Positions 12,301 to 62,450 of a DNA stretch of 64,000 bases are shown one piece after another. The stretch is from a virus. A program made the position numbers and the translations under genes. The stretch's first letter is position 1. Every line of letters begins with the position of its first letter. The stretch is taken from the IMG/VR virus record IMGVR_UViG_3300032242_001280. The stretch is one strand, 5' to 3'. The notes beneath the pieces were generated by a model that was not told where the DNA came from, made no database searches, and saw nothing but the letters and a program-made list of their open reading frames with translations.

Positions 12301-15300
12301 ATAAGTTATGGCAGATATCTAATAAACCAAGGGTTTATCTTTAATGATTTGCTTGCAGATAACCAAACTGTAAGTGATTGGACGCTAGCTGCTAAAGAAT
12401 TTTTATTTTGGGATCAACAAAATTGGGGTAACAATACTGTTATTGGATTAACTCCAACTGGAACTTCTGTAAATTATAGCAATGTATTTGGTGTAGTAGA
12501 TAAGATCACAAACGACCAATCATATACTAAAGTAATCGACAGTGATGGTACTACATTAACTGGCAGAGATTATCGTGTTTATAGAGATGATAATAACTTT
12601 AGCATTTCACTAAAGAATCCGCAAAAAGGTATTCATCTATTAGATATTTTTATAGTTCAGTATGAGCATTGTTTAGTTTTTGACAACTCAACAGTGTTTA
12701 ATGACATTTTATATGATGAACAAGTTGGAAGTCGTCAATTTAGATTGCGCCTAGATGGTGTCAAAACTCAAGGATGGAATGGAAGTCTATACGCGCCAGG
12801 ATTCCTAGTAAATTACAGCGATGTTGCTAATTGGACATCGTATACTGATTACTATACTGGAGATATTGTTTTATTTAAAAATCAATACTATGCCGCTAGA
12901 AATTTCATTCCCGGAGCAGTTAAATTTAATTCAACTGATTGGTATAAAATTTCTGGAGATTTGTTGAAAAAACAATTGATTCCAAATATGACATCCAATG
13001 CTGCTCAATTTACTAATTTTTATGATCCTGACACTGCCGATCTTAATACTAGTGCAGATATTCAAAGTAAACACGCCACTGGTTTCCAAGATAGACAATA
13101 CTTTACTAATTTAGGTCTTGACCGTACAAGCCAGTATAAGTTTTACTTAGGAATGATTACTCAAAAAGGAACACAAGCTGTTCTAAATGCTTTCTTGAGA
13201 AATCAACAAAAGAACATTGACAGTGAAATTGCTGTCTCTGAACAGTGGGCTATTAAACTTGGCAACTATGGTGGTACAAACAATGTTGATAAATTAGACT
13301 TCAATATTGGCAATAGCAAAGCTATTAATAACCAATATCTATTTGAATTTATCGATCAATATGATACTGCAAACAATGAACTAAACAGTATTAAACCAAG
13401 TGATTTATTTCTTGCTCCACGAACATATAATGCTAATATATTTGCACAAACTGAATATCAAAAGCCAATAGTATCAACTGCAGGACCAGTTAATATTACT
13501 GATGCTACTGCAAGTGTGTATGATATAAACAAGATTTATAATATCAGTAATTTAAGCAATATATTAGGCGAGTCAAGCAAAATATGGATAGCAGCAGACA
13601 GTGAAAATAAATGGGGCGTATATCGTTTAACACAAACAAGTAGAGTTAATGTTACTGGAGTAAACCAGACTGGTTCTACTGAAATAACTTTTTCAACTGA
13701 TATACCACATGGACTGAATACTTTTGATTATGTAATGATCAAAGGAGCAAAAATAGTTGCTTCTACTGGCACATCTGGTGTTATTGATTTAAGTGGGTTT
13801 TATAGAGTTAGCAACATTCCAAATGCAGTATCATTTTCAGTAAAGATTGTTAACAATACTACTATTAGCAGCGGAAAACTATCTGCGCCAATGTTTAAAT
13901 TGATAAATGTGCGATTTGGCACAGTAAACGATTTTGCTAATTTTACTCCAACTCGTGGTTGGCAAGACAGTGAAGTTGTTTATATTGATAATGGTCCAAG
14001 TGGATATCAAGTATTACAAAACACTGACAGTTGGAAATTTACAGAAACACGAAGCCCTGTCTTTACAAAACCTAGCGATTTGTATGGTTCAAGTATTAAA
14101 GTAAACTTTACTCAAAGTTTTGCCGCAGTTGGTGCTGCTGGAAAAAATACTACTGGTCAAGTATTCATTTACGGAAAAAATCAAGAAAATGTATGGCAAG
14201 AATTAGGAATATTAACTCCTGAAGCTAGAAGCTCTGGGTTTGGCAGTGCAGTTGATGTAAACAATAATAATATTGTAGTGGCATCCGCTCCATCATCCAA
14301 CAAAGGCAGCGTGTATACGGCAATTGCAAACAGTCAAGCTATTAGCGTAAACCAAATTATACATTATGACAACATTTATATTACTACTAGTACTCCTGTT
14401 ACTCCTTATGGAAACAGTGCAATATTAGTAGATAGCAGTTATGGTCTCGCTAACTTTGCAGCAGGAATGAGAGTCGTTGGTGCAAACATTGCAAGCGGAA
14501 CAGTTATCAGTAATCTTACAACGGGTTTTCCATACAATGTTATTGGAATTAGTTCAAACTTAGCAGTCACTAGCAGCACAATTGCTGGCGGCGCAAATAT
14601 TGCCATATATCCAACACTTAATGCAAATAGTGCGCTTGGAACAAGTCTATGTGCTAGTACAGATGGCAATTGGTTGTTTGTTGGCGAACCAACTCTTCAA
14701 CGAGTATTTGTTTACAAATACCAAATTGTAAATCCAAGCAATTCAAACAGAGTAGGCGATGGATATACAACTATATTTTCATATCCACCAACTGCTTATA
14801 GAATGAATCTTGGTCCACTTGATATTAAAGTATATGTTAGTGGAAAACAATTAGTGCCATATCTAGATTACATCAGAAACCCAGATGGAACAGATAGTAT
14901 CGCATTTAATACCGCACCAGCAAATGGCGCAGCTATTAGTATAGTATATGAAAATTATTTCCAAGAAGTTAATCAAATTGTTACCGATGACCCAACCGTT
15001 TCTGGGTTTGGTTCAAGCGTTTCTTGTAGCTATGATGGTCGTGAAGTTGTTATTGGTGCTCCATACAGCAACAGTGCCTTTGATATAACTTATAAAAATT
15101 CAGGAAAAGCATTTGTTTATGAAAGAACTGTAGAAAATTTTATATCAGATGGTATATCTTCTACTTTTAATTTAAGCAATGCTTTTGTTGGAAGTGATAC
15201 TATTACTACGGCAAATCTTGTAACATACCCTACGGTGACTGTAGATGGTGTTGCTACAGCAGCAACATTTAGTTATGCTAATAATTCCGTAACTTTATCC

Positions 15301-18300
15301 AGTGTACCAAGTCCCGACAGTATAGTTGCAGTATCAACAAATCAATTTATTATTACAAAAATTGCTACTTCTGATTCTGGTCAAGTTGGTAGTAACTTTG
15401 GTCAAGTTGTGCAAATGTCTAGAGATTCGCAAACTCTTTATGTAAGTGCTCCGGGTTGGAATTATACAAGTTATCAAAATGGTGCAGTGTTTGCCTTTGT
15501 CAACATGCCTAAACGATGTGGTATAGCCACTGGAACTAATACAAATGTTAATATGGCTGCAAATTTGCAGTTGCGAATCAATGATTTCTTAGTTACATTT
15601 ACTGGCGGCAATGCGGCTCAGTGTGTAAAAGATATTAATAATGCAAATGTTATTGGCGTAACTGCTAGTTTAACTCCTACTTCTACTGTGCAAATAGTAA
15701 GCAATGATCAAGTAGCGGTGAATAAACTTAGACTTCGTAATGAATATGGTGATCCACTAACTGCCATGGGTATAGTTTCTTGGCAGTTAACACAGAAGTT
15801 GTTTAGTCCAATAATTCAAGACTCAGAGCGTTTTGGTGAAAAGTTAAGTCTCAGTCCAGATTCTAAAACAGTCGTTGTTGGTACTACCTTAAGCAATAAC
15901 AAGATTACAACAACTTTTGATGCAAGCAAGACTACATTTGATATTAATACTATTAGAATCATTGACACGGTTCACACAAGTGGTTCTGCACATATATTTG
16001 AGTATATTGCTGGTAAATCAAATAAAATTGCAGATATGGGAAGTTTAGTTTATGCTAAGCTGTTAACTCAACCAAATATTTCAAGTCTTGATAAATTTTC
16101 AACTGGCGTTGATGTCAGTGACAATTTTATCTTTGTTGGTTCTCCAAACTCTAAAATTCTAGGAAATCAAACAGGCGCAATGTACATATATTACAACGCA
16201 AATTCTGCTCCTGTTTGGAATACTATTAGAGAACCAAGTACTGCTACTGATAGCAGAATGATAGACAGAGTTTACATATACAATTCAGCAACTAGTAAAT
16301 TGATTGCAGATTTGCCAGTGTTAGATATTCTTCATAACCGCCTTCCTATCTCGGCAGAATCTTATATTGATTATACTATAAATTATGATCCTGCAGTATA
16401 CAGCAATGTTCCTAGCACAGTAAGCTTTAGTGTTGATAAGAAAAATAACTGGGGCGAAGAACAAGTTGGCAAGCTGTGGTGGGACACTAATAGTATAAAA
16501 TATTTTGATAATTCACATGGATCAAATCTTGAAAAATTTAATAGATGGGGACAAGCATTTCCAGTAAGTTCAGTAGCGATTTATGAATGGATTGAAAGTT
16601 CGCTATTACCAAAAGATTGGGCTGCGGCATATCCATTAAATCCACCGCTGTATACTGTTAATGATGTTTATAGCACAAAAACTGTTGTTGACCATTCAAC
16701 TGGATTAGTTACAACAAAGTATTATTTTTGGGTTCGTAATAGCACACGAGTTGACTCAAATAATGTCAGACCAAGTGCTTTTGAAATTCAAACTGCAATT
16801 TCACAACCTAAACTATCTGCCGAGCCATTTGCTGCAGTAATTTCTAGTAATTCAATTGCGCTGTATAATATTACTAATTTAATAAATGTAGATACTAACT
16901 TGGTAATTGAATACAAAAACACTATTAAACCACAGCTTATTCACAATGAATGGACAATGTTTGATGATGGCACCGATCTTGGTATTGCGCCAGAGTTTAT
17001 CAATAAGATAAATGATAGCCTATCTGGTCAGGATTATAGTGGCAGAGTTATACCAGACCCTACATTGAGTATTGGTCAAAAATATGGCATGGATATTCGT
17101 CCACGCCAATCATTGTTTAGTGATCAATATACTGCCAGAAAACTTTATATTGAAAAATTAAATGAAATTTGCATGAAATATCCAATGGTATTGACTAGAA
17201 AAAGTGCAGTACAAGCATTAAATGTTGGCGAAGCACTGCCGTTGCATTATACATATGTTACTTCTGTTGCAAATTTAACTGAACTTGGTTATCTAGATAC
17301 AAATATATACAATGCAGGTGACTTAGTATTAGTTGTAAATGACAGCAATGCAAAGAATGGATGGTCTTTATATAAATTAAATGTAGAATTTCCAAATACT
17401 AGAACTTGGTCAATTTACCAAGTTCAAACTTACAATGTAAACGATTATTGGTCATATGCTGACTGGTATAGTGACAAATATAATCCTGAGTTTAATATAA
17501 CTTATACTATAGATACTGAAAATCAAATTGGATCGTTAAATTTAAATGTAAACGATTTAATTTATATTAAAAATAGTAATACAACTGGTTGGAAAATAGT
17601 TTTAGTTAATATTAATGGATTAGAATTAATTGGACAAGAAAATGCTACTATTCAATTTAGTTCAACACTCTATGACCAAATATCAAGTGGTCAAGGTTTC
17701 CAAACTAGTAGTCTTGAAACTGTTGGATTTGCAAGCGATTCTAATTTAGAATTTTCTGTAATATTTGGTATAGTTCGTGACCTATTGCTTGTTAACGAGT
17801 ATAGAGTTGATTGGAAGAGTATATTGCGATTGTTGATCGATACTATTGCAACTCAACATTTACAAACTGATTGGCTAATGAAAACAAGTTTTGTTGACAT
17901 ATATCATCGTGTTCGTGGACTTGATCCATTGCCAGTGTATCTGCCACAACCAGAATCTATTGTAACTGATTTCTTTAACGAAGTAAAACCATTTCATACT
18001 AAGTTAAAACAATATGTTGCCAAATATGATAATAATAATAATATTGATTATGCATATTCCAGCTTGACAGATTTTGATTTGCAACCATATTATAACACTG
18101 CAATAAGCAAGTATCGTAGTCCTCAACTAAACAATAGTTTAGATACTAAAATACTTAATACACAATCGCTGTATCAACCTTGGAAGAACCACCACACATA
18201 TCAAATTTTGAGAATAGATGTTTCTGCAAATGGCACTGGATATACTGGTTCAACTACTGTAGTAATTGAAGGCGATGGCACTGGTGCTACGGCAAAAGCG

Positions 18301-21039
18301 TATATTTTAAATACAGGTGTTCATACTATTGAAGTTACTAATCCAGGAACTGGCTATACGCATGCGGTAGCTAAAATTTATGGTCGTGGTTCGGGTGCCG
18401 CTGCTTCAGTAATATTGGGTAATAGTCCTGTTCGTCTGCTTAATACTAATATTAAGTTTGATAGATATACATATTTTAACAATATATCTGATTGGAAATC
18501 AAATAAACTTTACACTGTTGATACGGTTGTTGTTAATGGCGCAGAACCATATAGAGTAATTACTGCTCATACGAGCGGAACAACTTTTGACTTTACGAAG
18601 TTTGCGCTATTAAGAGTAAAAGTATGGTACCCATATACCGAATATGCCGTTAACGATATAGTAATCTATCAAAATACTAGCTATAAAGCAATTAATACAT
18701 TTACAAGTATTGAATTGTTTGATACTAATAACTTGGTTAGTTATAATGGGTTATGGTTAGACAATGCTGCTGATCGCATTTGGGCATATTATTCTCCTAT
18801 GTCTGGTATGGCAGGTCGCGATCTTGCTCAGATAATGATTGGTATGGAATATGGTGGCGTAAATGTTAAAGGACCAAACTTTGATCAAACCCCAGGATAT
18901 GATGTTAATAACTTTGATAGTATAGAATATGATTTAAGAACACAAGATGCTGGCGGCGTGTTTGATGATTATGGTGCACAAGCTGAAGATACCTATATCC
19001 AAAGCGCATTTACTGACACTGGGCTTGGCTTGCGTCCATCAGATATTATTGTTTTAGGTGGCGAGTTTGTTGACAAATACTCAAGCAATGCACCAGAGGA
19101 ATTAATTCCTGGAATAATTAACGATACCCTTGATATCAAGATTAAAACATTGCCTGTTAATTCTGGCAGTGGTGACATAATGATATTCACCAACCAATAT
19201 AGTGTTACCAATAGTTTTAGTTTTGATCCAGCAATTACAGGCGTTGCTTGGCCAATCGGCGGAATTGAAAAATTCTTTATCATTGATAGAATAGCAGGAC
19301 CAATTGCCGAAGGCGTAGATTATACTGTTAATTGGCAAAATAAAACTATTAATTTAAATTACAATGTTAATACTACTACATTTTTCTATTGTATAATGAT
19401 GGGAAGTAATGGAACAAATCCGCTATTTGACCAAGATTATACTGCAGATGGTATTCAAACAGATTTTGTAATTCCAGATAGTATTCTAAACACAGTTCAA
19501 CAAGCATATGTCAAGGTAAATGGAAGCGCAGTTAGTAACTGGGTACTAGTCAATAAGTTATTAAATGGAATTAATACATTAGCTGTTAGATTTGATACCG
19601 CTCCTGTGGCTGGCTCATATATTCAAGTTCACCTGTACTCAGTTGCTGTTGGAACTCGTGCCTATACAGAAATTACTGAACAAACATTTATAACTAGCGC
19701 AACACCTAATTATCCAGCAGATTATACATATGTGTTTAGCAATCCTGAAGAATATCAAGAACCACTAAGTGCGTATTCAATCGTAAGACTTAATGCGTCA
19801 GATTTGATTCCTCCACAGCAAAGTTATTATGTTGGTGATGCGGTGACAACTGCATTTAGCTTAACACGAACATATATTCCAGACACATATGTCGGCGCTA
19901 CTATTGAAATTGAGTTAGCAAACTATGTAGCAACTATATCACCAACAGCAATTTTAGTAATCATAGATGGTGTTGTTCAAAGATACAATATTGATTATAC
20001 TATTAGTGCAGATGGAATAAACATGCCAATAGTAGTATTCACTGCTGCGCCAGCATTGAATAGTAAAATTACTATCAGCGATTCAAGTAATAGTGATTAT
20101 ACAATTTATGGTGGAAACAATCTTATCTTAAATCAAAATATAGTGTTAAACCCAAACAGTGTAATAACTGTTCTTACTAGAGGAAATCATGATCCTAGTC
20201 AAGTGTATACTAAGATTTTCAGTGGCAACGCAAGTAATTCAATTGTTGATATTGATTTAGGTTATGATGGTATTGGATTTGATGATAGTGGATTTGATAA
20301 TGAGTTAAGCACAAATGTTTCAAACGCCATTTATACATTGCCGTTTGCTGTAACAAACATTAATCAAGTATATGTTACTCTTAAATCGCCAGGCACAACT
20401 GGCGGACGACCATTGCTGCCATATTATGATTACAATCTTGTTTCTCCAACTAAGTTGGCGATGAGCAACAGTTTAGGATTATATACTAATAGTACTGTTA
20501 TTGTTAGAATTTATGGCAGTACTATTCGCGAAACGACAGTTGAGTTTAGAATATTCAAAGATATTAATAACAATACAAGATACTATGCTGTAAGACCAAG
20601 CCGTGTAACTCGTTTAAGCAAAGTGTTAAATCCTACTGATGAGTGGGTATATGTTGAAAGTGTAGCCAACTTGCAAAGTCCCAACCCAAAAACTAACATT
20701 GCTGGCGCAATTTTAGTCAATGGTGAAAGAATTACATATGGCACAGTTGATACGGTAAACAATCGTTTAGGAAATATTCGCAGAGGAACAGCAGGAACTG
20801 GCGCAAGTATCCATGAAGTAGGAAGCCAAGTTGACGATGTTGGTTCAACGCTTATCATACCAAACAGCAGTGATAAAGTTATTACTGTAGATCATGACAC
20901 TTATATAACTAATAGTGCTGGAACAAATGTGCTAGTACCTGCAAATGGAACTCTTATGCAAGGAAAAATGTTTATCAATCCTAGCGAAAGTTTACAGACT
21001 AGCTTAACTCAACAAGCAAAGTTTATAAGAGAACCTTAA
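6304..21039 (+). CDS. Giant virion structural/baseplate protein (4,911 aa) with beta-propeller-like and carbohydrate-binding-like modules
   Basis: Uninterrupted 14.7-kb ORF after gp6; starts RRSIDFLPSVF; FGxSV...VIGAP propeller-type repeats, W...Y..GDIV.Y CBM5/12-like motifs, GTGY repeats and FDxxxFD motifs. Confidence 0.75.
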   Translation: MAKRRSIDFLPSVFRTKTNQRFLNATVDQLIQEPSLKKIYGYIGQQDQSSVFRPSDYYINENDSYSQFYQLEPGVVIKKRQKNSNTFTIDNIYNYPDLLNQLVSSGAITNDHQRLFSNRYYSYNGFVDLDKLTNYRQYYWVPTGPLPVDVTASGISLIKEFNVHRISYTANNQTELQSASIGQSGYVIDGYENIVNPTITLQRGGRYTFNLGQKGHKFYIQSEIGTSGVSVVQANINTRDVLGVSNNGSESGTLIFNVPLKTAQDSLISLDTIQNIDMIAHVPYNAMQGQNYDTFIQNYNLDGVKAFSTITLSIDWPFNDGDWLDVPVNQRSGIWQVTIDNNKFLPDGVTNNPNYRNMSLVYLNDWAENTKTFVNQGDKYGHTYVYRNSNGVITQFPTITAPLSTLYYQDADNPLIYGEIRLVDPIPGTFLNINDIIGHDQYTSPNGIKFSSGLKVKFTGVTFPTEYQNNEYIVEGVGTSIKLLKYNELVTPEIINQNVGDVFGSDTIGFDDSNFDGTINAPTQKDYVTINRSSADGNSWSRNNRWFHREVLQYAADKSNQIWNFDAAQQAQRPIVEFIPNLKLFDYGTNYAGAVTVFDSNTTDAFFQIEGQNNYALIKNGKYVSDNRLLQNGQTVIFLNDVDPNVRKTIYQVQSIRPRSSATYNLPTIATSHAGTNTIFLADVGNIKVNQKVTSSLIQQTQPAFTTTASQTSFFCNLISNLGDFDAYYFNVYLNNVLQTNNVDYSVTYQQSVYYTGSSLVTSTVNTINSNNNINLPTIATTYATVVSGSNIISINSGSGIVNGQAISGTGIPVGTTVISGGGTSSLTLSNTCTQSLTSVTVTTYANIQSGQVIVDNGGIFQNGTTVISGGGTQTLQLSKVATATASGVAINVYQASSSYYNPTINFLNKVINSYSFVSTAGQTAYGLVNTSISATTNYRYDVYVNGTLKTITSDYTVSADVNGHPIINLNSAPITGSAVVINNVVTGPATGTTVLVEYIPLSTPILPNTTVTSIDSVNNIVYISTAINSDIAAGLYLTFDNSSDQIHLVPVKQVSDGDNVIAMEGEINQGNVYFYDSGVWNLAQLRNSRPQFPLFDVIDINGFSLSDTTVYPSSNFRGSKLFGYAIGNLTSITDTVLGFPLVRQSVGNIGDIVFENYYITDTFNYNLNFKDNITNVSTGFVARINYWKNYFFENGWTVVSDKSKQYITKIFTANEAKKNNFDLELVYKHSYYENNIFVYVNGIVVPSTAYTVQINNITTTIKFNTDLAAGDRLFVKINGVSNIFKQNYTMPKNITNNSENLNFNTITLGQIRNHLIEIGNNCLNLNGEPAGSNNFRDINYSNIGGKLLQHSSSLRQASLLLANPDVDPVRAITYSENNYQNFKNQLIDLINNKEFPDPKDARGSLDLILSDFIKLTNTNSTFYYTDMLATGSQYITNSYTIQDTTYRSFNLTNTYANKKSSYNAVLVYLTNKLYGTRQLLVNGVDYTINNFTVTISSTVSISRLDTISIYEYASTLGCNVPATPSKLGLYPKFVPQKILDDTYYTPQHMIIGHDGSYNLAWNDYRDDILLEYEKRVFNNIAVDYQNNSDYSLVSVVPGAFRVTDYSIVEWTQLLSGSYLSWSGQNNVDIFTNNNNTNSLFGFNYSKATDKLFGQTLPGYWRGIYNYFYDTDKPHTNPWEMLGFTEKPKWWDNRYGVAPYTSQNITLWGDLELGLIYNGAPNKSYIDSKYTRTGLNQIIPVDEHGNLLPPLKSLIAEYDSRTANDNWRVGDQSPAETAWRRSSSYPFAMQIAWFLAKPAEYCALNYNSRDVVYNELLGQIINQKTNTRIFDYGITSASEFVPGFNVWVRDLLTSNNLDVTYNWLDIAMNSSFNLVYKMSGYTDKSYLTVVADQVSPASTNNSVLIPPENYKIKVTKSAPIGRAIYSAVIVQKTSTGYQISGFDKIRPYFLTIPSKASGNSYGLTVGQLTGIIYKDAQDTVTSFPYGTIFSTHQQVVDFLISYGRYLINQGFIFNDLLADNQTVSDWTLAAKEFLFWDQQNWGNNTVIGLTPTGTSVNYSNVFGVVDKITNDQSYTKVIDSDGTTLTGRDYRVYRDDNNFSISLKNPQKGIHLLDIFIVQYEHCLVFDNSTVFNDILYDEQVGSRQFRLRLDGVKTQGWNGSLYAPGFLVNYSDVANWTSYTDYYTGDIVLFKNQYYAARNFIPGAVKFNSTDWYKISGDLLKKQLIPNMTSNAAQFTNFYDPDTADLNTSADIQSKHATGFQDRQYFTNLGLDRTSQYKFYLGMITQKGTQAVLNAFLRNQQKNIDSEIAVSEQWAIKLGNYGGTNNVDKLDFNIGNSKAINNQYLFEFIDQYDTANNELNSIKPSDLFLAPRTYNANIFAQTEYQKPIVSTAGPVNITDATASVYDINKIYNISNLSNILGESSKIWIAADSENKWGVYRLTQTSRVNVTGVNQTGSTEITFSTDIPHGLNTFDYVMIKGAKIVASTGTSGVIDLSGFYRVSNIPNAVSFSVKIVNNTTISSGKLSAPMFKLINVRFGTVNDFANFTPTRGWQDSEVVYIDNGPSGYQVLQNTDSWKFTETRSPVFTKPSDLYGSSIKVNFTQSFAAVGAAGKNTTGQVFIYGKNQENVWQELGILTPEARSSGFGSAVDVNNNNIVVASAPSSNKGSVYTAIANSQAISVNQIIHYDNIYITTSTPVTPYGNSAILVDSSYGLANFAAGMRVVGANIASGTVISNLTTGFPYNVIGISSNLAVTSSTIAGGANIAIYPTLNANSALGTSLCASTDGNWLFVGEPTLQRVFVYKYQIVNPSNSNRVGDGYTTIFSYPPTAYRMNLGPLDIKVYVSGKQLVPYLDYIRNPDGTDSIAFNTAPANGAAISIVYENYFQEVNQIVTDDPTVSGFGSSVSCSYDGREVVIGAPYSNSAFDITYKNSGKAFVYERTVENFISDGISSTFNLSNAFVGSDTITTANLVTYPTVTVDGVATAATFSYANNSVTLSSVPSPDSIVAVSTNQFIITKIATSDSGQVGSNFGQVVQMSRDSQTLYVSAPGWNYTSYQNGAVFAFVNMPKRCGIATGTNTNVNMAANLQLRINDFLVTFTGGNAAQCVKDINNANVIGVTASLTPTSTVQIVSNDQVAVNKLRLRNEYGDPLTAMGIVSWQLTQKLFSPIIQDSERFGEKLSLSPDSKTVVVGTTLSNNKITTTFDASKTTFDINTIRIIDTVHTSGSAHIFEYIAGKSNKIADMGSLVYAKLLTQPNISSLDKFSTGVDVSDNFIFVGSPNSKILGNQTGAMYIYYNANSAPVWNTIREPSTATDSRMIDRVYIYNSATSKLIADLPVLDILHNRLPISAESYIDYTINYDPAVYSNVPSTVSFSVDKKNNWGEEQVGKLWWDTNSIKYFDNSHGSNLEKFNRWGQAFPVSSVAIYEWIESSLLPKDWAAAYPLNPPLYTVNDVYSTKTVVDHSTGLVTTKYYFWVRNSTRVDSNNVRPSAFEIQTAISQPKLSAEPFAAVISSNSIALYNITNLINVDTNLVIEYKNTIKPQLIHNEWTMFDDGTDLGIAPEFINKINDSLSGQDYSGRVIPDPTLSIGQKYGMDIRPRQSLFSDQYTARKLYIEKLNEICMKYPMVLTRKSAVQALNVGEALPLHYTYVTSVANLTELGYLDTNIYNAGDLVLVVNDSNAKNGWSLYKLNVEFPNTRTWSIYQVQTYNVNDYWSYADWYSDKYNPEFNITYTIDTENQIGSLNLNVNDLIYIKNSNTTGWKIVLVNINGLELIGQENATIQFSSTLYDQISSGQGFQTSSLETVGFASDSNLEFSVIFGIVRDLLLVNEYRVDWKSILRLLIDTIATQHLQTDWLMKTSFVDIYHRVRGLDPLPVYLPQPESIVTDFFNEVKPFHTKLKQYVAKYDNNNNIDYAYSSLTDFDLQPYYNTAISKYRSPQLNNSLDTKILNTQSLYQPWKNHHTYQILRIDVSANGTGYTGSTTVVIEGDGTGATAKAYILNTGVHTIEVTNPGTGYTHAVAKIYGRGSGAAASVILGNSPVRLLNTNIKFDRYTYFNNISDWKSNKLYTVDTVVVNGAEPYRVITAHTSGTTFDFTKFALLRVKVWYPYTEYAVNDIVIYQNTSYKAINTFTSIELFDTNNLVSYNGLWLDNAADRIWAYYSPMSGMAGRDLAQIMIGMEYGGVNVKGPNFDQTPGYDVNNFDSIEYDLRTQDAGGVFDDYGAQAEDTYIQSAFTDTGLGLRPSDIIVLGGEFVDKYSSNAPEELIPGIINDTLDIKIKTLPVNSGSGDIMIFTNQYSVTNSFSFDPAITGVAWPIGGIEKFFIIDRIAGPIAEGVDYTVNWQNKTINLNYNVNTTTFFYCIMMGSNGTNPLFDQDYTADGIQTDFVIPDSILNTVQQAYVKVNGSAVSNWVLVNKLLNGINTLAVRFDTAPVAGSYIQVHLYSVAVGTRAYTEITEQTFITSATPNYPADYTYVFSNPEEYQEPLSAYSIVRLNASDLIPPQQSYYVGDAVTTAFSLTRTYIPDTYVGATIEIELANYVATISPTAILVIIDGVVQRYNIDYTISADGINMPIVVFTAAPALNSKITISDSSNSDYTIYGGNNLILNQNIVLNPNSVITVLTRGNHDPSQVYTKIFSGNASNSIVDIDLGYDGIGFDDSGFDNELSTNVSNAIYTLPFAVTNINQVYVTLKSPGTTGGRPLLPYYDYNLVSPTKLAMSNSLGLYTNSTVIVRIYGSTIRETTVEFRIFKDINNNTRYYAVRPSRVTRLSKVLNPTDEWVYVESVANLQSPNPKTNIAGAILVNGERITYGTVDTVNNRLGNIRRGTAGTGASIHEVGSQVDDVGSTLIIPNSSDKVITVDHDTYITNSAGTNVLVPANGTLMQGKMFINPSESLQTSLTQQAKFIREP

Positions 21040-52121: not shown

Positions 52122-53387
52122 TCAATCTTCGTAGTAAGCGTGGATACCAAATGGCGGTTCAATGGTCTTGTTGTACTTGTTATGGATGATCCATACTGTA
52201 TCGCAATAGTTCTCGTCGCCCCATGAACCGTATGGTTCGCCATCGGTAAACACAATAAAGAGTTTTGGATTTACATCTTCGTCCTTCATCCATTTCCAGT
52301 TGACATCAAAGTCAGTACCACCAAAACCTGCAGCTTCATAGTTGATGAGATCATCGCCATCAGCAGTGGTATAATCTACAGGGTTATGAATTTGCGTATC
52401 AAAACACCAAATCTTAACCTTGTAGTCATCATATGACTGCATGATGCCATTGATTTCGCTAAAGAAATCATTCAACTGGTCATTGCCAATAGAACCACTG
52501 GTATCAATTGCGATGCAAACATCAATAGCTTGATCCTTGCGCATGTTAGGCAGAACAAAACCCTGTGAGAACATTTTCTTGTTAGGAATAGTCCAAGTGT
52601 AATCGTTCTTGATAGTAGACTGGATTTGTTGTGTGATAAGTTCACGCCAGTTGATCTTAGGTTGCGTGAGTTCATTGATCATACGCTTGATATTGCCAGG
52701 CGTATTGCCAGCACCTGCGGATTGTGCAGCGGCAAGCATAGCTTCTTTAAACTCGTCCTTGATAGCCTGACGCTCTTCTGGTGTCATTGGATTAGGACGA
52801 CCATTGCCCTTGCCATCTTTGTCATCTTCGTTATCGCCTTCGCCCTTGCCGCTGTTACCTTCTAGGTGGTCATCAAGCAATTGGTCAAGCAAATCTTCGA
52901 TATTGATTTTCTGTGCGTTCTTAATCAAGTCATCATAAACTTGTTCAAAATTCCAGTCATCATACTTGCGATCATACAGGACAGGCACGACCGTAATCTT
53001 TTGACCAAGGTTGTACTTGATGCAATCAGCATTGACCACATAGTCCATTGCAATGTTAGCAAGGTCACGGTTATAACCACGACCACGGTTCATATGGTCA
53101 TACGCGCAATGAAGCAACTCATGACAGAACAAGAACATCATCTGGTTGGTAGGCAACTTGAGGATAAAGTCACTATTGTAGTAGAAGTGGCGACCATCAG
53201 TGGCAGCAGTGGTCAGCCAACTATCAGCATTGACCAGTTTGAGCCGCATGGCAAGGTTACCGAAAAATGGTTGCTTGAGAACGAGAGCAATACGCGCTTT
53301 AAGGATTGCCTGACGAGCGTCATGGTCCTTGTTTTGATCGATGGTATCGCTGAGTTTGCCAGCGCCTGGTTGGTTCTTTTTAGCCAT
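52122..53387 (-). CDS. HExxH metallopeptidase-like plus vWA domain protein (DUF2201-type), partner of the AAA+ ATPase
   Basis: PFFG...TAATDG...HELLH; acidic/Gly linker; AIDTSGS MIDAS, GGTDF, FTDG. Start placed at ATG 53387, 8 nt after GGAGA. Confidence 0.9.
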   Translation of the reverse strand: MAKKNQPGAGKLSDTIDQNKDHDARQAILKARIALVLKQPFFGNLAMRLKLVNADSWLTTAATDGRHFYYNSDFILKLPTNQMMFLFCHELLHCAYDHMNRGRGYNRDLANIAMDYVVNADCIKYNLGQKITVVPVLYDRKYDDWNFEQVYDDLIKNAQKINIEDLLDQLLDDHLEGNSGKGEGDNEDDKDGKGNGRPNPMTPEERQAIKDEFKEAMLAAAQSAGAGNTPGNIKRMINELTQPKINWRELITQQIQSTIKNDYTWTIPNKKMFSQGFVLPNMRKDQAIDVCIAIDTSGSIGNDQLNDFFSEINGIMQSYDDYKVKIWCFDTQIHNPVDYTTADGDDLINYEAAGFGGTDFDVNWKWMKDEDVNPKLFIVFTDGEPYGSWGDENYCDTVWIIHNKYNKTIEPPFGIHAYYED

Positions 53388-53486: not shown

Positions 53487-53519
53487 CTCGCCCTCACTGA
53501 TGGAGAACGATGGGGCGAG
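53487..53519 (-). promoter_or_regulatory. 3'-UTR hairpin whose loop is antisense to the gene's own RBS region
   Basis: Stem CTCGCCC/GGGCGAG; enclosed 53496-53507 is the exact reverse complement of 54658-54669. Confidence 0.6.
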
Positions 53520-53521
53520 AA

Positions 53522-54652
53522 TTAGTCACGCACGGCGGCGAGAATATAATCACCGTTCTTTGCATGGTATTCCTTGTAGTTGTTCATCTTGCTAGTCTTG
53601 ATTGGCAACTTGTAATTGCGCAAGATGGTAGCAAGCATCATTACCTGCAGTTCTGTGTCCATATGATCGAGGAAGAAACGGAACACATTATCCAGTTCAC
53701 CGTGCCATGCAGTGTAATCACTTTCCTTCATCTTGTCACCGCCGCGATTGACAAACGAGTCCTTGAGTTCGTAGCAGATAGAAACAGTCAACGAGTACTT
53801 GGCACCGATTTCCTTAGTACGAAGTTCCTTGACTTTACCGTTCAGAATGTCACTAGGATTAGGCATCTGGCTTGCAACCTTACGGTGGGCAGCAAACTTG
53901 AGTGCAACACCTTCACCAACCGTACCGCTCACAAGGTCATTGAGTTCGGTATCGTTAAGGTCTTCTTGCAGAAGTTCGCTGACAAACGACCACGAGCGAG
54001 GCGTAGCAAACGATGCACCTGACGAGCGAGGATCGAAGTTGAACAAGTCATTCTTATTACAGGTGACATATGCAACCACATCAGGGTTGATAGCATGGTT
54101 GATAGCCCAATCATTCCACGACTCGAAGTCAACACGCAAGTTCAAGTGAACAAAACGGTTAGCAAGTGGCGATGGCATACGATAGACTACACCACGATCA
54201 GTATCGCGGTTGCCAGCAGCAACGATAACAACATTGTCAGGAAGTTCATAAGTACCAACACGACGATTAAGAACCAACTGGTAAGCAGCAGCCTGTGTTG
54301 CAGGTGCAGCACTGTTCATTTCGTCAAGGAATAGGAATACCACAGGATACTTGGCAGCTTCTTCTGCAGATGGCAGATCAGGCGGAGCATTCCACATAGC
54401 ATTGCCGACAGTAGGATTGTAGTATAGAACGCCCTTCAAGTCAGAAGGGTCCATGAGTGCAAGACGCAAGTCATACAACTTACCACCCATGCTTTCGCAA
54501 AGGTCTGCAACGAGTTCGGACTTACCGATACCAGGCGCACCCCAAAGGAATACAGGACGCTTGCGACGAGCGCAAACCATGACCTCACGCTTTGCAGCAG
54601 CGAGGGTAACCGTGCGCACTTCGGAAAGTGCAGTGTCAGTGTTCTTAGCCAT
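53522..54652 (-). CDS. MoxR-like AAA+ ATPase
   Basis: Walker A GAPGIGKS, Walker B FLFLDE, AAGN sensor, PLANRF arginine finger, ATPRSW. Confidence 0.93.
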   Translation of the reverse strand: MAKNTDTALSEVRTVTLAAAKREVMVCARRKRPVFLWGAPGIGKSELVADLCESMGGKLYDLRLALMDPSDLKGVLYYNPTVGNAMWNAPPDLPSAEEAAKYPVVFLFLDEMNSAAPATQAAAYQLVLNRRVGTYELPDNVVIVAAGNRDTDRGVVYRMPSPLANRFVHLNLRVDFESWNDWAINHAINPDVVAYVTCNKNDLFNFDPRSSGASFATPRSWSFVSELLQEDLNDTELNDLVSGTVGEGVALKFAAHRKVASQMPNPSDILNGKVKELRTKEIGAKYSLTVSICYELKDSFVNRGGDKMKESDYTAWHGELDNVFRFFLDHMDTELQVMMLATILRNYKLPIKTSKMNNYKEYHAKNGDYILAAVRD

Positions 54653-54681
54653 TTTGTTTCTCCATCAGTTGACTATAATTT

Positions 54682-54710
54682 AATATAGCATATTATTTTG
54701 TTCTGTCAAG
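54682..54710 (-). promoter_or_regulatory. Early cassette promoter (AAA+ gene)
   Basis: cTTGACA-N16-TATATT with TGn. Confidence 0.85.
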
Positions 54711-54718
54711 GACTTTTT

Positions 54719-55045
54719 TTACAGTGCACCCGTCCAACGGATGCAATCAAGGGTACCGTCTAGAACATTACCACGAGCAAAGTTCATAGCAGGAGCCTTC
54801 CAAGAGGCAGGTTTCAAGATATCACCTGCACGGAATTTTGGACCATCCTTCTTAACTACAAAAGAATGCACCGAATTACGCTGAATGATCTTGAAATACT
54901 TGCTGCCTTCCTCAATACGGATAGAGGCATTATATTCTTTAATCATCTTGGCGACGATTGGATCACTAGTACGGTTGCCGCTCCAAGCAAGATAATCGGC
55001 TTTGGACTTTTCAATGATAGCGGCGAGACCAGATTGCATATCCAT
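54719..55045 (-). CDS. Conserved small phage protein
   Basis: 108 aa; SVHSFV...GDILKPASWKAPA---ARGNV motif; own promoter and GGAGA RBS. Confidence 0.85.
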   Translation of the reverse strand: MDMQSGLAAIIEKSKADYLAWSGNRTSDPIVAKMIKEYNASIRIEEGSKYFKIIQRNSVHSFVVKKDGPKFRAGDILKPASWKAPAMNFARGNVLDGTLDCIRWTGAL

Positions 55046-55074
55046 GGGAAATCTCCGTTGCTGTTTATATTATA

Positions 55075-55103
55075 ACAATAACACAGAATTAGGGTATGTC
55101 AAG
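55075..55103 (-). promoter_or_regulatory. Early cassette promoter
   Basis: cTTGACA-N16-TATTGT with TGn; the -35 contains the upstream TGA stop. Confidence 0.82.
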
Positions 55104-55353
55104 CACTTTTTGGTTTATTTAACATCATTTCTTTTATAAGAAATTTGGCGATATTTAACTGCTGACGGATAAATTCATCAACATTTGGGGACGGAATTGA
55201 TGGATTTTTTCTATCCATCATTTCCTGACAATCGGAAAGAATACCCATGACGACCATCTCCACGCCAACCAGTTTAGCAGAGAGGCTGTTGATATATTGG
55301 TCACGGATATCGGCTCTAGACATGCCGTAGCAGATTTGTTCAGAATGCGTCAT
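55099..55353 (-). CDS. Hypothetical early protein
   Basis: 84 aa; own promoter and GGAGAG RBS. Confidence 0.8.
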   Translation of the reverse strand: MTHSEQICYGMSRADIRDQYINSLSAKLVGVEMVVMGILSDCQEMMDRKNPSIPSPNVDEFIRQQLNIAKFLIKEMMLNKPKSA

Positions 55354-55380
55354 GTGTATCTCTCCATTGCTTATATTAGT

Positions 55381-55409
55381 AATATAACACAGAATTAGAG
55401 GCTGTCAAG
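55381..55409 (-). promoter_or_regulatory. Early cassette promoter
   Basis: cTTGACA-N16-TATATT with TGn. Confidence 0.85.
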
Positions 55410-55411
55410 GG

Positions 55412-55582
55412 TTATTTTTTAACCCCGTCTGTGAGACCAATTGCCACACATTCGTTAGGAAATTTAGCCCACATTTCCGTGATAAGAGCAGCACGAGATT
55501 CCTCAATGCCAGGAATTTCAGCGATTTCGCTAAGGGTGATGATTTCTTCCACATACTGAGAAAATGACCAAGAATTGCGCAT
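55412..55582 (-). CDS. Hypothetical early protein, 56 aa (not in the ORF track)
   Basis: ATG at 55582 after TGATGGAGA and a cassette promoter; translates MRNSWSFSQYVEEIITLSEIAEIPGIEESRAALITEMWAKFPNECVAIGLTDGVKK*. Confidence 0.85.
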   Translation of the reverse strand: MRNSWSFSQYVEEIITLSEIAEIPGIEESRAALITEMWAKFPNECVAIGLTDGVKK

Positions 55583-55611
55583 CCGTGTTCTCCATCAATT
55601 GACTATAACTT

Positions 55612-55640
55612 AATATAACATGGATTTAGGAGTTGTCAAG
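55612..55640 (-). promoter_or_regulatory. Early cassette promoter
   Basis: cTTGACA-N16-TATATT with TGn. Confidence 0.85.
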
Positions 55641-55648
55641 CGAAAAGT

Positions 55649-55858
55649 TTAGCTATTATCACCAGACCAGTATTTTAATTCAGCCTCAGTTATTGGCGCA
55701 ACTACCTGTGGACGCCGAACTGATGACAGAGTTGCCCATGGATTAACCCGACAAACAGCCTCTTGAATATCGGCATCATTGCATCCATCAGGAAGACGAA
55801 CTGTAACAGTGCCACCAAAATCTGCATAACCTTTTGGCCAAATTTCTAAGATAATCAT
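55649..55858 (-). CDS. Hypothetical early protein
   Basis: 69 aa; own promoter and GGAGA RBS. Confidence 0.8.
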   Translation of the reverse strand: MIILEIWPKGYADFGGTVTVRLPDGCNDADIQEAVCRVNPWATLSSVRRPQVVAPITEAELKYWSGDNS

Positions 55859-55886
55859 AGCCGTCTCCGTTGCTGTTTATATTATA

Positions 55887-55915
55887 ACAATAACACAGAT
55901 TTAAAGGTTGTCAAG
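55887..55915 (-). promoter_or_regulatory. Early cassette promoter
   Basis: cTTGACA-N16-TATTGT with TGn; the -35 contains the upstream TGA stop. Confidence 0.82.
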
Positions 55916-56114
55916 CACTTTTTTCAAAGTAGCGGATATCGGCTTCCGTGGTATGGGGGTCTTCTGCACGGATTGCCGCAACCAACATGCCCCACTTATT
56001 ATCAAGTGCCTTGCTGATCGCATTGGCTTCATCATACCGACCAGTGTCCATATAAAGACCATAGATGGTTTCTAGGGCGGTCAGGTCCATGCGGATGGCT
56101 TCGATGTGGTCCAT
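55911..56114 (-). CDS. Hypothetical early protein
   Basis: 67 aa; own promoter and AAGGG RBS. Confidence 0.8.
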   Translation of the reverse strand: MDHIEAIRMDLTALETIYGLYMDTGRYDEANAISKALDNKWGMLVAAIRAEDPHTTEADIRYFEKSA

Positions 56115-56144
56115 GGGGTATCCCTTTCTATTGCTTATATTATG

Positions 56145-56173
56145 AATATAACACAGGTTTAAGGATTGTCAAG
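56145..56173 (-). promoter_or_regulatory. Early cassette promoter
   Basis: cTTGACA-N16-TATATT with TGn; the -35 contains the upstream TGA stop. Confidence 0.85.
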
Positions 56174-56816
56174 CATCTTTTTTAATCCGCACATAGTGCA
56201 AACGGGTTTGGTTATTGTCATCGTGCTTGTGAACACGGGCTGTCAAATTAATGACAGTTCCACGCGCCAGTTGTTCGCTGAGAGGGAAGCAAACAAGGCA
56301 ATTATCGGCAGTAATTGCGGTATGGTACCACTTATTGTAATTGGCGCTATAAACCGCTGATTTGATTGTAATTTCTGCGGAAATGTTATCGCCAACCTTG
56401 CCAATGTGACGGCTATTTTCTGAAATTTGACGGATTTCATCGCGAGAATTTTCACGATCAATAGCGTTTTTATAGGAATTTGGAACGCTAGCAACCAGTG
56501 CTAAGGTCTTGAAATCCTTGGCATTAATCTCTTTTTGTTCGGTCAGCAGAACCAAGTTCTTCCAATAATCATGAAGAGTTCCAGCAACAAGTTCAATCAT
56601 TTTGCTGTCAAGATATTGGAGAATTTCATTAGCAATTTCAATGTCTTGTGGCAAATGGTCAAAGTTTACCATTTCTGGATTGAGAAATTCACGCATAAGT
56701 GCGCCATTGGAAAGTTCACCTTCCTTGGCATCATAACGCTTGATATACTTGCCATTAACCCTTTGGGCGGCTACGGCGGCGGTCATGGCATCTTTGAGAG
56801 AAATGGTATCAGTCAT
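56169..56816 (-). CDS. Hypothetical protein with possible C-terminal OB-fold
   Basis: Start reassigned to ATG 56816 (MTDTIS), which overlaps the arfA-like stop (ATGACTGA) and follows AAGGA; HIGKVGD...TRLHYV C-terminus. Confidence 0.75.
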   Translation of the reverse strand: MTDTISLKDAMTAAVAAQRVNGKYIKRYDAKEGELSNGALMREFLNPEMVNFDHLPQDIEIANEILQYLDSKMIELVAGTLHDYWKNLVLLTEQKEINAKDFKTLALVASVPNSYKNAIDRENSRDEIRQISENSRHIGKVGDNISAEITIKSAVYSANYNKWYHTAITADNCLVCFPLSEQLARGTVINLTARVHKHDDNNQTRLHYVRIKKDA

Positions 56817-56928
56817 TGCTAGTTTCCTTTTGCTTCTTACGATTATAACTGCCTTTGCCTTTTTTGGCAAGAACTATTCTCTGACGGTACAGAGGTTTCG
56901 CTAATTCTCTTGCTTCTGCGCTGCGCAT
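56809..56928 (-). CDS. arfA: Alternative ribosome-rescue factor A-like protein, 39 aa (not in the ORF track)
   Basis: MRSAEARELAKPLYRQRIVLAKKGKGSYNRKKQKETSND*; matches the ArfA core PLFRQRV...KKGKGSY-RK; own promoter and GGAGA RBS. Confidence 0.82.
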   Translation of the reverse strand: MRSAEARELAKPLYRQRIVLAKKGKGSYNRKKQKETSND

Positions 56929-56954
56929 TGCCTTTCTCCATTGCTTATATTATG

Positions 56955-56983
56955 AATATAGCATGGATTATATATCTGTCAAG
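56955..56983 (-). promoter_or_regulatory. Early cassette promoter (arfA-like gene)
   Basis: cTTGACA-N16-TATATT with TGn; the -35 contains the upstream TGA stop. Confidence 0.85.
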
Positions 56984-57380
56984 ACATATTTTGAATGGCT
57001 TGTCCTAAATTATTGTCACAAAGTGTCAGCATTACACTTAATTCGTTATCCATTAGGAATAGTTCCCCTTTGCTCATTTGATAAAACCAAGGGTGATTAT
57101 GGTATCGATCCATCAGCACAATTTCTTTGCCGTTTATTTGATATTTGCGCCTATCTATATGATGTTCATAGAATTTATAACCATAATTACGCATTAGTTC
57201 AAATGCAGTATTATTAAGCCTAAACCCAAAATTTTTATTGTTATTGTACCAATAAAGAATATAGATATTTTTTTGATTTATGTTTGGAATAAATGCATCT
57301 TCGCCATGGGCCAAATGATATAACTCATGGGTCCATTCAGTTTTAGATTTTTTATTTTGTTGGGTAAACGGTTGGTCCAC
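56979..57380 (-). CDS. Hypothetical phage protein
   Basis: 133-aa ORF; WYN...GFRLN motif; overlaps the upstream gene. Confidence 0.75.
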   Translation of the reverse strand: MDQPFTQQNKKSKTEWTHELYHLAHGEDAFIPNINQKNIYILYWYNNNKNFGFRLNNTAFELMRNYGYKFYEHHIDRRKYQINGKEIVLMDRYHNHPWFYQMSKGELFLMDNELSVMLTLCDNNLGQAIQNMS

Positions 57381-61896: not shown

Positions 61897-62156
61897 GCAT
61901 ATGCCAACATAAAAAAACTTACATGCTGTTCATCGGCAAACATAACTGGTAATTCTGTACCATTATCAAGTTGAAGAAATACATAATCTTGACCATTACG
62001 CAACCCATGATGATTAAAAATTTCTTTTAATTGAGACATCGCTATATTGCGTTTATTCCACAGCCCATATCTAGGCGTATTATTTAATTTTGCAAGTGGA
62101 AATCTTGCTATTTTATTTTCGTCTTTGTTATAGACTGAAACATCTAGGTTTGGCAC
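61890..62156 (-). CDS. Hypothetical protein
   Basis: 88 aa, GTG start; C-terminal pattern (G---G-DY-F...F...FM) resembles the neighbouring 101-aa protein. Confidence 0.65.
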   Translation of the reverse strand: MPNLDVSVYNKDENKIARFPLAKLNNTPRYGLWNKRNIAMSQLKEIFNHHGLRNGQDYVFLQLDNGTELPVMFADEQHVSFFMLAYAC

Positions 62157-62442
62157 TGGCAGAACCTATTAATTAATGTGAAGTATTGTGACTAGATTCT
62201 ACAATTAATGCAGCATCTAGTTCCCAGTTATTTCGAATATATTCACCACGCCGTACTTTTTCGTATTGACCATACGGAGTGTTGCGACGGTAAAGGTCTG
62301 CCTCATTAAAGACAAACCCATATTCACGGCAGAAATTGCGATATGCATCCAAATCATTGAATACACGGTTTACAGTTGAATTACGAATCATTTGTTTCTC
62401 TTTTTTCTAGAGGTTAATATTATTATGGAACTGCCAGTGCCA
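62151..62442. repeat. 12-bp perfect inverted repeat flanking the 72-aa gene
   Basis: TGGCACTGGCAG at 62151-62162 and CTGCCAGTGCCA at 62431-62442. Confidence 0.9.
62173..62391 (-). CDS. Conserved hypothetical phage protein
   Basis: 72 aa; VFNDLDAYRNFCREYGFVFNEADLY; own promoter. Confidence 0.8.
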   Translation of the reverse strand: MIRNSTVNRVFNDLDAYRNFCREYGFVFNEADLYRRNTPYGQYEKVRRGEYIRNNWELDAALIVESSHNTSH

Positions 62443-62450
62443 TAGTTCTT

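Follow-up and report, generated by a model that had tools for sequence, protein, structure and literature searches.

The locus described here raises the question of why the transcript of a viral ATPase gene should carry, almost directly behind its stop codon, a perfect complement of its own leader. The locus lies in a 64,000-nucleotide (nt) stretch of the virus record IMGVR_UViG_3300032242_001280, the whole of which we refer to as the window, and all of its features are on the minus strand. A gene for a MoxR-like AAA+ ATPase of 376 amino acids (coding sequence (CDS) 54652-53522, TAA stop codon at 53524-53522) is followed by what we term the display hairpin, whose 5' arm CUCGCCC (53519-53513) begins 2 nt past the stop codon and pairs with the 3' arm GGGCGAG (53493-53487) in a 7-bp stem. 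The 19-nt loop of the hairpin (53512-53494) contains the anti-leader UUCUCCAUCAGU (DNA TTCTCCATCAGT; 53507-53496), which is an exact complement, over 12 of 12 nt, of the target ACUGAUGGAGAA (DNA ACTGATGGAGAA; 54669-54658) in the leader of the same gene. The target includes the Shine-Dalgarno (SD) sequence GGAG and is separated by 5 nt from the ATG, and the leader and loop sites are the sole exact copies of the 12-mer within the window. A sequence-only reading of this DNA had described just such a stem, situated between stop codon and terminator and enclosing the complement of the gene's own SD region, and its description is exact by coordinates. We consider it reasonably probable, on the comparative evidence given below, that the loop in the untranslated region at the 3' end (3'UTR) pairs with the leader, or translation initiation region (TIR), of the same mRNA, such that the finished message would close on its own start and so control its translation.

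Relatives of the locus came from IMG/VR, scanned three times, and from Joint Genome Institute (JGI) metagenome contigs, scanned once; together these scans gave about 120 loci with ATPases 53-100% identical. For each locus, the 35-40 nt ahead of the start codon were set against a stretch of 60-85 nt spanning and following the stop codon. Of the 81 distinct pairs of AAA+ leader and 3'UTR, 49 contain an exact complement of at least 9 nt, 45 of at least 10 nt and 22 of at least 12 nt, and the complementarity in the matching relatives ranges from 9 to 15 nt. The other genes of the same loci, used as a control, contain a complement of at least 9 nt in 1 of 560 distinct pairs and of at least 10 nt in none of the 560.

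The paired sequences themselves differ from one class of relatives to another (individual loci are cited by L number). The window clade has ACTGATGGAGAA in the leader and TTCTCCATCAGT in the loop, with variants that cut the match to 10 or 8 nt. The class of L027, L063 and L042 has TTTGATGATGGAG and CTCCATCATCAAA in L027 and TGATGATGGAG in L042; the pair is TTGATGGAG in L041, CTCACAGGAA and TTCCTGTGAG in L043 and L044, and TTGGAGGTGC(A/C) in L067-L075. The L093 group (L083-L103) carries AGTTAGGAGCA together with TGTAAGTTA nearer the 5' end of the leader, the L108 group (L108-L113) carries AGGAGCAAAC, and L089 and L092 carry TTTTTATTTAACT. A marine clade (n = 11) has TTACAGTTAGAAAAC, its leader opening with (GT)TACAGTTAGAAAAC, and a second small hairpin complementary to the AGCCCUAUG start region. 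At least six clades therefore have unrelated sequences in which leader and 3'UTR change together. When leaders and 3'UTRs were compared class by class, six blocks along the diagonal of the resulting matrix stood out from a background of 4-7 nt, and in a scripted permutation test of cognate against non-cognate classes none of 100,000 permutations reached the observed cognate sum. The covariation of loop and leader among homologous AAA+ loci, on which the sequence-only reading had staked its proposal, is thus borne out. In a tree of the proteins the carriers form six clades, scattered across the tree, with eight state changes; the feature would thus be either old and lost several times, or gained repeatedly.

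The manner in which the anti-leader is presented is also conserved. In the hairpin-bearing clades it is always found in the loop, between stop codon and terminator, while the display stems have no sequence in common (CTCGCCC, ATGCCCCCCG, TTGCCGCCC, TGATAGGGCCCAT, TATTGGGGGCGA, TGGGGGCAT, TTACTGGGGGC, ATCTATT and GGTCCA). By our own reading of the alignments, the base of the stem is 0-8 nt from the stop codon in most classes. The marine clade has a 13-bp stem (TTGGTTGAGGGCC/GGCCCTCAACCAA) around a multiloop that displays the anti-leader. Local folding gives the anti-leader a mean probability of being unpaired that is mostly 0.6-1.0 across classes and 0.75 in the window, where the local fold forms both hairpins at -40.1 kcal/mol (z = -4.7). 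The 33-nt hairpin is identical throughout the window subclade, in which the DNA identity of the CDS falls as low as 77.5% (median 87%), and the adjoining terminator sequence differs in nearly every lineage. Given that the hairpin is constant while the CDS and the terminator diverge, purifying selection acts on both loop and stem. Taken across the relatives, these alignments demonstrate selection on the leader-loop complementarity and on the stem that displays it.

Both pairing sites lie inside the predicted transcript, between promoter and terminator. The predicted promoter of the AAA+ gene (54709-54682) is of the sigma-70 type, with TTGACA, 16 nt and TG-TATATT (11 of 12 consensus matches and an extended -10), and its position places the predicted transcript start approximately 6-8 nt upstream of the leader target; the same promoter-leader cassette is kept in relatives. 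An intrinsic terminator with a 13-bp GC-rich stem and a U-run is predicted at 53484-53445, the sole strong terminator predicted in 52-58 kb, and the 3'UTR in the window is about 75 nt long. The match accordingly begins about 7 nt into the transcript, and the anti-leader lies not at the 3' end but upstream of the terminator. The 12-bp leader-loop duplex is predicted to have a free energy of -18.1 kcal/mol. Folding of the full transcript, another step suggested by the sequence-only reading, gave a closed molecule: the minimum free energy (MFE) fold of the 1231 nt from predicted start to terminator contains all 12 leader-loop pairs. Long-range leader-loop pairs are also present in the MFE folds of L027, L044, L108 and L116, and in L070 they occur in the ensemble with a mean pair probability of 0.84. 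RNAduplex on long flanks produced untidy extended duplexes and was not used for conclusions.

Of the ten sequence classes, nine have a duplex that spans the SD or whose end lies 1-11 nt from the AUG. For the marine clade, the principal match is to the 5' end of the leader (beginning at about +1, and 17-21 nt upstream of the AUG) and not to the SD. For this reason we phrase the general rule as a 3'UTR that pairs with its own leader or TIR, and not strictly as an anti-SD element. The interpretation that had been proposed from the window is supported, with an amendment: the leader-loop pairing is conserved, covarying and gene-specific, whereas the strict restriction to the SD does not hold for the marine clade.

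We envisage that such an element would work as follows. Since transcription and translation are coupled, a 3' element could take effect only once transcription of the gene is complete. During transcription of the gene the leader would be unpaired and ribosomes would load; once the 3'UTR had been synthesised, the loop would capture the leader in a 12-bp duplex (predicted at -18 kcal/mol) far stronger than the 4-nt contact between SD and anti-SD. In the closed transcript the SD or the 5' end would be hidden and fewer further initiations would take place, and closure would probably alter decay as well, whether through protection of the 5' end or because a substrate for ribonuclease (RNase) III is formed. 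The simplest outcome would be a burst of translation from each transcript followed by closure, and the net result would be a synthesis of the ATPase that is self-limiting and tied to transcription. That the pairing would repress, or silence, the message is our inference.

Several observations limit this hypothesis or weigh against it. A 12-nt inverted repeat is in itself not rare: about 11 exact 12-mers are expected by our own arithmetic, and a generic inverted-repeat scan of the window found 185 inverted pairs with a seed of at least 10 nt within 3 kb. The raw 12-mer statistic is thus weak, and the match is significant only once its position is taken into account; when the upstream 70 nt of each of 54 window genes were compared with the downstream 70 nt of the same gene, 2 of the 54 (the AAA+ gene and one more) had a complementarity of 12 nt and all others had at most 9 nt. 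Approximately 40% of the distinct relatives are without the element, and the 3'UTR of PA5oct, the nearest cultured relative, has no anti-leader, from which it follows that the element is dispensable for the gene. The leader motif is in some lineages common to other genes (two to three cassettes upstream of the AAA+ gene, and eight copies of a 10-mer in a 338-kb genome), so that the loop could also act on other messages. The pairing at the 5' end in the marine clade fits protection of that end as well as it fits repression. There is also the matter of geometry, as a 12-bp helix within a 19-nt loop is topologically strained, and the nested MFE retains the hairpin in L041, L042 and L093, whose display stems are 9-13 bp long. 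Nested folding cannot represent the hairpin and the pseudoknotted loop duplex together, and the zero long-range values obtained for these three loci result from that limitation.

The sharing of the leader by other genes leads to an alternative that we regard as possible though unlikely, namely that hairpin and terminator constitute a 3'UTR-derived small RNA (sRNA) whose loop acts in trans on early mRNAs with the same leader, the AAA+ mRNA being one target among several. The leader is indeed part of a repeated promoter-leader cassette. A second copy of the leader family, TGATGGAGAAC (UGAUGGAGAAC; 55597-55587), stands ahead of a gene for a 56-amino-acid protein and is complementary to the loop over 11 nt, a match that the sequence-only reading had pointed out and that is real. 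Some phages have two or three further leaders that match the loop, the eight copies of the 10-mer mentioned above are carried by a complete relative, and phages of the L023 type have another gene with an 11-nt match as compared with 10 nt for the AAA+ gene; in the marine phages TACAGTTAGAAA heads several genes with matches of 12-16 nt, one gene having 16 nt. The terminator has a long U-tail like those of Hfq-dependent sRNAs, and sRNAs derived from 3' ends are well known, SdhX being an example (PMC6393394). On the other side, no strong internal promoter is predicted, and in the contigs of L027, L042, L025, L029, L032 and L001 (51-111 kb) the loop core has no complement other than the AAA+ leader. 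In the L027 (86.5 kb) and L042 (86.9 kb) contigs the 11-mer is confined to leader and loop, as is the 10-mer TGATGGAGAA in four further large contigs. Moreover, the element has stayed on the 3' end of the AAA+ gene despite complete turnover of its sequence and despite insertion and shuffling of downstream genes. Linkage of this kind would be unneeded by a purely trans-acting regulator, and together with the six contigs in which the only complement is the gene's own leader it favours self-targeting. Regulation by the loop of the next gene downstream, which encodes a von Willebrand factor A-like (vWA) protein, was set aside. The 8-nt complementarity between the 5' part of the loop and the ribosome-binding site (RBS) of this gene, TGGAGAAC (UGGAGAAC; 53401-53394), had been reported correctly, but it is weak; a match of 7-10 nt is found only in the close clade, goes hardly beyond the shared SD and is not conserved in more distant relatives.

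Pairing might instead serve mainly to protect the mRNA, with the 5' end closed on the 3'UTR to shield the leader from 5'-end-dependent or leader-cleaving RNases and to yield a long-lived message. The marine clade, which pairs the first nucleotides of the predicted transcript and not the SD, would be explained in this way, and there are precedents both in a 14-bp interaction between 5'UTR and 3'UTR of hbs mRNA that modulates RNase Y cleavage in the leader (PMC5737220) and in the 5'-3' fold-back of hok mRNA that strongly stabilises the full-length molecule (PMC9841398). A duplex lying on the SD or 1-11 nt from the AUG, as in nine of the ten classes, should nevertheless block binding of the 30S subunit, and protection is in any case compatible with repression, hok doing both; as the main function we judge it quite improbable. 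A further explanation would place the function at the level of DNA, where the 12-mers could be the inverted repeats of an invertible segment or mobile cassette, or paired operators bound by a protein. The repeats flank exactly one gene, and the region past the terminator is a hot spot at which different genes are inserted in relatives. Yet the gene is never inverted relative to its promoter among the approximately 117 loci analysed, no recombinase gene adjoins the element (its neighbours are small ORFs (open reading frames) of no known function and the DUF2201/vWA gene), and both repeats are always in the predicted transcript, with the 3' copy always in the loop of a covarying stem for which a DNA site would have no need. 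Repeats of 9-15 bp are also too short for concerted evolution driven by recombination, or for gene conversion. We consider a DNA-level role very improbable, and inversion or mobility of a cassette was rejected on the grounds of the single orientation, the placement of the repeats in the predicted transcript and in a loop, and their shortness. Least credible of all, to the point of being negligible, is a reading of the motif as the RBS of a plus-strand gene, with an ATG at 53510 and an ORF antisense to the AAA+ gene, which the sequence-only reading had offered as its alternative. In the window GGAGAACGATG has an acceptable spacing between SD and start, and the frame is open for 170 codons. In relatives with AAA+ proteins at least 86% identical to that of the window, the frame has 4, 5, 10, 61, 66, 82, 93 or 153-171 codons; the ATG has become ATA in the L018, L022 and L060 types, there is no start codon past the motif in the L027, L041, L042, L067 and L108 classes, and the ORF has no Pfam match. 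With neither frame length, ATG nor start codon conserved, this candidate was dropped.

Self-pairing of mRNA ends that hides an RBS is already known, and the comparison with known systems helps to define what is particular to the phage element. The closest parallel is the icaR mRNA of Staphylococcus aureus, which pairs by its 3'UTR with its own SD (Ruiz de los Mozos et al. 2013, PMC3868564) and which its authors term 'a singular example' (PMC3868564). Like icaR, the phage mRNA has in its 3'UTR an anti-SD motif, rich in pyrimidines, that would pair with the SD region of the message itself; a block of initiation with possible processing by a nuclease is proposed as the outcome in each case, and the same ambiguity between action in cis and in trans is discussed. 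The phage element differs in its short 3'UTR of about 75 nt, with a 9-15-nt anti-leader in a hairpin loop between stop codon and terminator, in belonging to an ATPase gene, and in being supported by covariation in multiple lineages rather than by experiment. In the hok mRNA of the hok/Sok system of plasmid R1, a tac/fbi fold-back between 5' and 3' ends keeps the full-length mRNA closed, stable and untranslated (PMC9841398). Here too the untranslated ends would pair at long distance and are conserved in structure rather than in sequence, and the marine clade resembles hok in pairing the extreme 5' end of the leader. Unlike hok, in which the mok SD is sequestered by an upstream complementary box while the tac/fbi stem keeps the molecule closed, and trimming of the 3' end reopens it, the phage 3' element mostly covers the SD directly; it is followed by an intact terminator hairpin, by which such trimming should be blocked. 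The phage gene, moreover, encodes a 376-amino-acid AAA+ ATPase, and no toxin or antisense partner is evident; no convincing antisense promoter was found over the leader, the sole plus-strand consensus match (54669-54696, 10 of 12) having only been scored.

The hbs mRNA of Bacillus subtilis (Braun et al. 2017, PMC5737220) provides another short long-range helix, of 14 bp, which joins leader and 3'UTR within a single mRNA and modulates the access of RNases to the leader. The hbs helix protects the mRNA and leaves the SD available, whereas in most phage classes the SD is within the helix. That the proposed pairing physics works in vivo is shown by a massively parallel study in B. subtilis (Gill et al. 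2025 preprint, PMC12697547), in which 8-mers resembling the anti-SD, placed several hundred nt downstream of an RBS, pair with the RBS, block initiation and hasten decay. Those sequences are synthetic inserts of a kind generally selected against in natural genes, while the phage element is positively conserved, is matched to its own leader beyond the SD core and is structurally displayed. As in 3'UTR-derived sRNAs of the SdhX type (PMC6393394), the seed is upstream of the mRNA's own intrinsic terminator and may regulate other messages, but the known examples target other genes and not the RBS of the parent mRNA. Presentation of the anti-leader in a loop is shared with antisense-RNA kissing systems. 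A search of the literature found no paper describing 5'/3' self-pairing of this sort for genes of dsDNA phages, and Rfam covariance models gave no relevant match across 51-57 kb at E <= 1. The phage element is set apart from the known cases by its host, a dsDNA jumbo phage, by the compact succession of stop codon, display hairpin and terminator, by the presentation of the anti-leader in a loop and by the breadth of the covariation.

The window contains a second gene of the same design. It encodes 72 amino acids (62173-62391, in the region 62145-62448, also on the minus strand) and has a leader hairpin whose loop contains UGGCACUGGCAG (TGGCACTGGCAG), of which an exact 12-nt complement, CTGCCAGTGCCA, is found in the loop of a TAGGTT/AACCTA hairpin right past the stop codon, where the hairpin overlaps the GTG with which the following gene starts. 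Both sides covary in relatives, ...GGCAG/CTGCC... becoming ...GGCAA/TTGCC... (G>A with C>T), and in more distant relatives the match moves to CACTGGCAAG, TGGCAAGTCC or ATTACAACA (classes of 9-11 nt). As this pair covaries too, the design is used more than once in the phage. One could go further and see in the hairpin a sensor of translation termination on several jumbo-phage genes, by which a message would keep count, or time, of how it is translated before being stored in a closed, nuclease-resistant form; this idea we hold to be doubtful. With the base of the stem so close to the stop codon in most classes, every terminating ribosome must melt the stem, and the lock would form only once ribosome traffic stops, or at the first completion of the transcript. 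Modulation of the lock by terminating ribosomes is speculation on our part.

The ATPase itself matches AAA_3 (PF07726) with 27.4 bits against a cut-off of 27, and AAA (PF00004) and AAA_5 (PF07728) above their cut-offs; in PHROGs it matches phrog_1297, 'ATPase', at 1.5e-89. Directly after its terminator comes the promoter of the downstream partner gene (52122-53387, minus strand), the product of which has both a DUF2201_N domain (putative metallopeptidase) and a VWA-like one; the PHROGs name for its family, 'HNH endonuclease' (phrog_1314), looks like a mis-annotation. In L005, L016, L024, L025, L032, L033, L035 and L050, differing genes or 0.9-1.2 kb of extra DNA are present between the AAA+ terminator and the DUF2201/vWA gene, and the position right after the terminator is an insertion hot spot. 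At its 3' end the contig of L008 (IMGVR_UViG_3300013286_000081) folds back perfectly over the region of hairpin and terminator, which is probably an artefact of assembly at the palindrome of the latter. Upstream, 54655-56985 (minus strand) is occupied by a row of one-gene cassettes, each with a near-consensus promoter and one of three stereotyped leaders, in which the TGA or TAA stop codon of the preceding gene is often within or beside the -35 TTGACA. No terminator is predicted in this array before that of the AAA+ gene, so nested transcripts probably share its 3' end, and 53484-53445 is likely to be the common 3' end of transcripts from promoters at about 57.0-54.7 kb. In the marine loci L116, L122 and L124, TACAGTTAGAAA is situated right after the -10 box of several genes, at about 250 nt upstream of the AAA+ start and 2.5-3.5 kb downstream of it, and forms the shared 5' end of a class of transcripts, all of them complementary to the AAA+ 3'UTR loop over up to 16 nt. 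Elsewhere in the window, within the block of structural genes, a single ORF of 4,911 codons extends from 6304 to 21039 (plus strand).

The phages of this family are uncultured and come from fresh water and the sea; the related contigs were assembled from metagenomes of freshwater lakes, among them the TBL_comb48 epilimnion set. L038 (IMGVR_UViG_3300032334_001259), with an ATPase 90% identical, is a complete genome of 338,435 bp with direct terminal repeats, and CheckV estimates the completeness of contigs of 86-117 kb at 24-35%, from which we conclude that the window derives from a jumbo phage. A megablast search of the locus against cultured phages gave no match; the closest cultured relatives are PA5oct-like phages, with 45-51% protein identity, and as the PA5oct 3'UTR is without the anti-leader there is no laboratory model at hand.

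The comparative support for the element is unusually strong, with at least six independent sequence solutions in freshwater and marine phages and with neighbouring genes as a clean negative control. Its layout is compact and portable, and could be reused as a synthetic self-limiting expression module. If the reading of the hairpin as a termination sensor were true, then together with the second case at 62173-62391 it would mean that programmed 5'-3' closure of mRNA could be a widespread principle in prokaryotes and phages that has hardly been described. For the phages themselves, the locus indicates that 3'UTRs, usually annotated as mere terminators, can hold gene-specific regulatory information.

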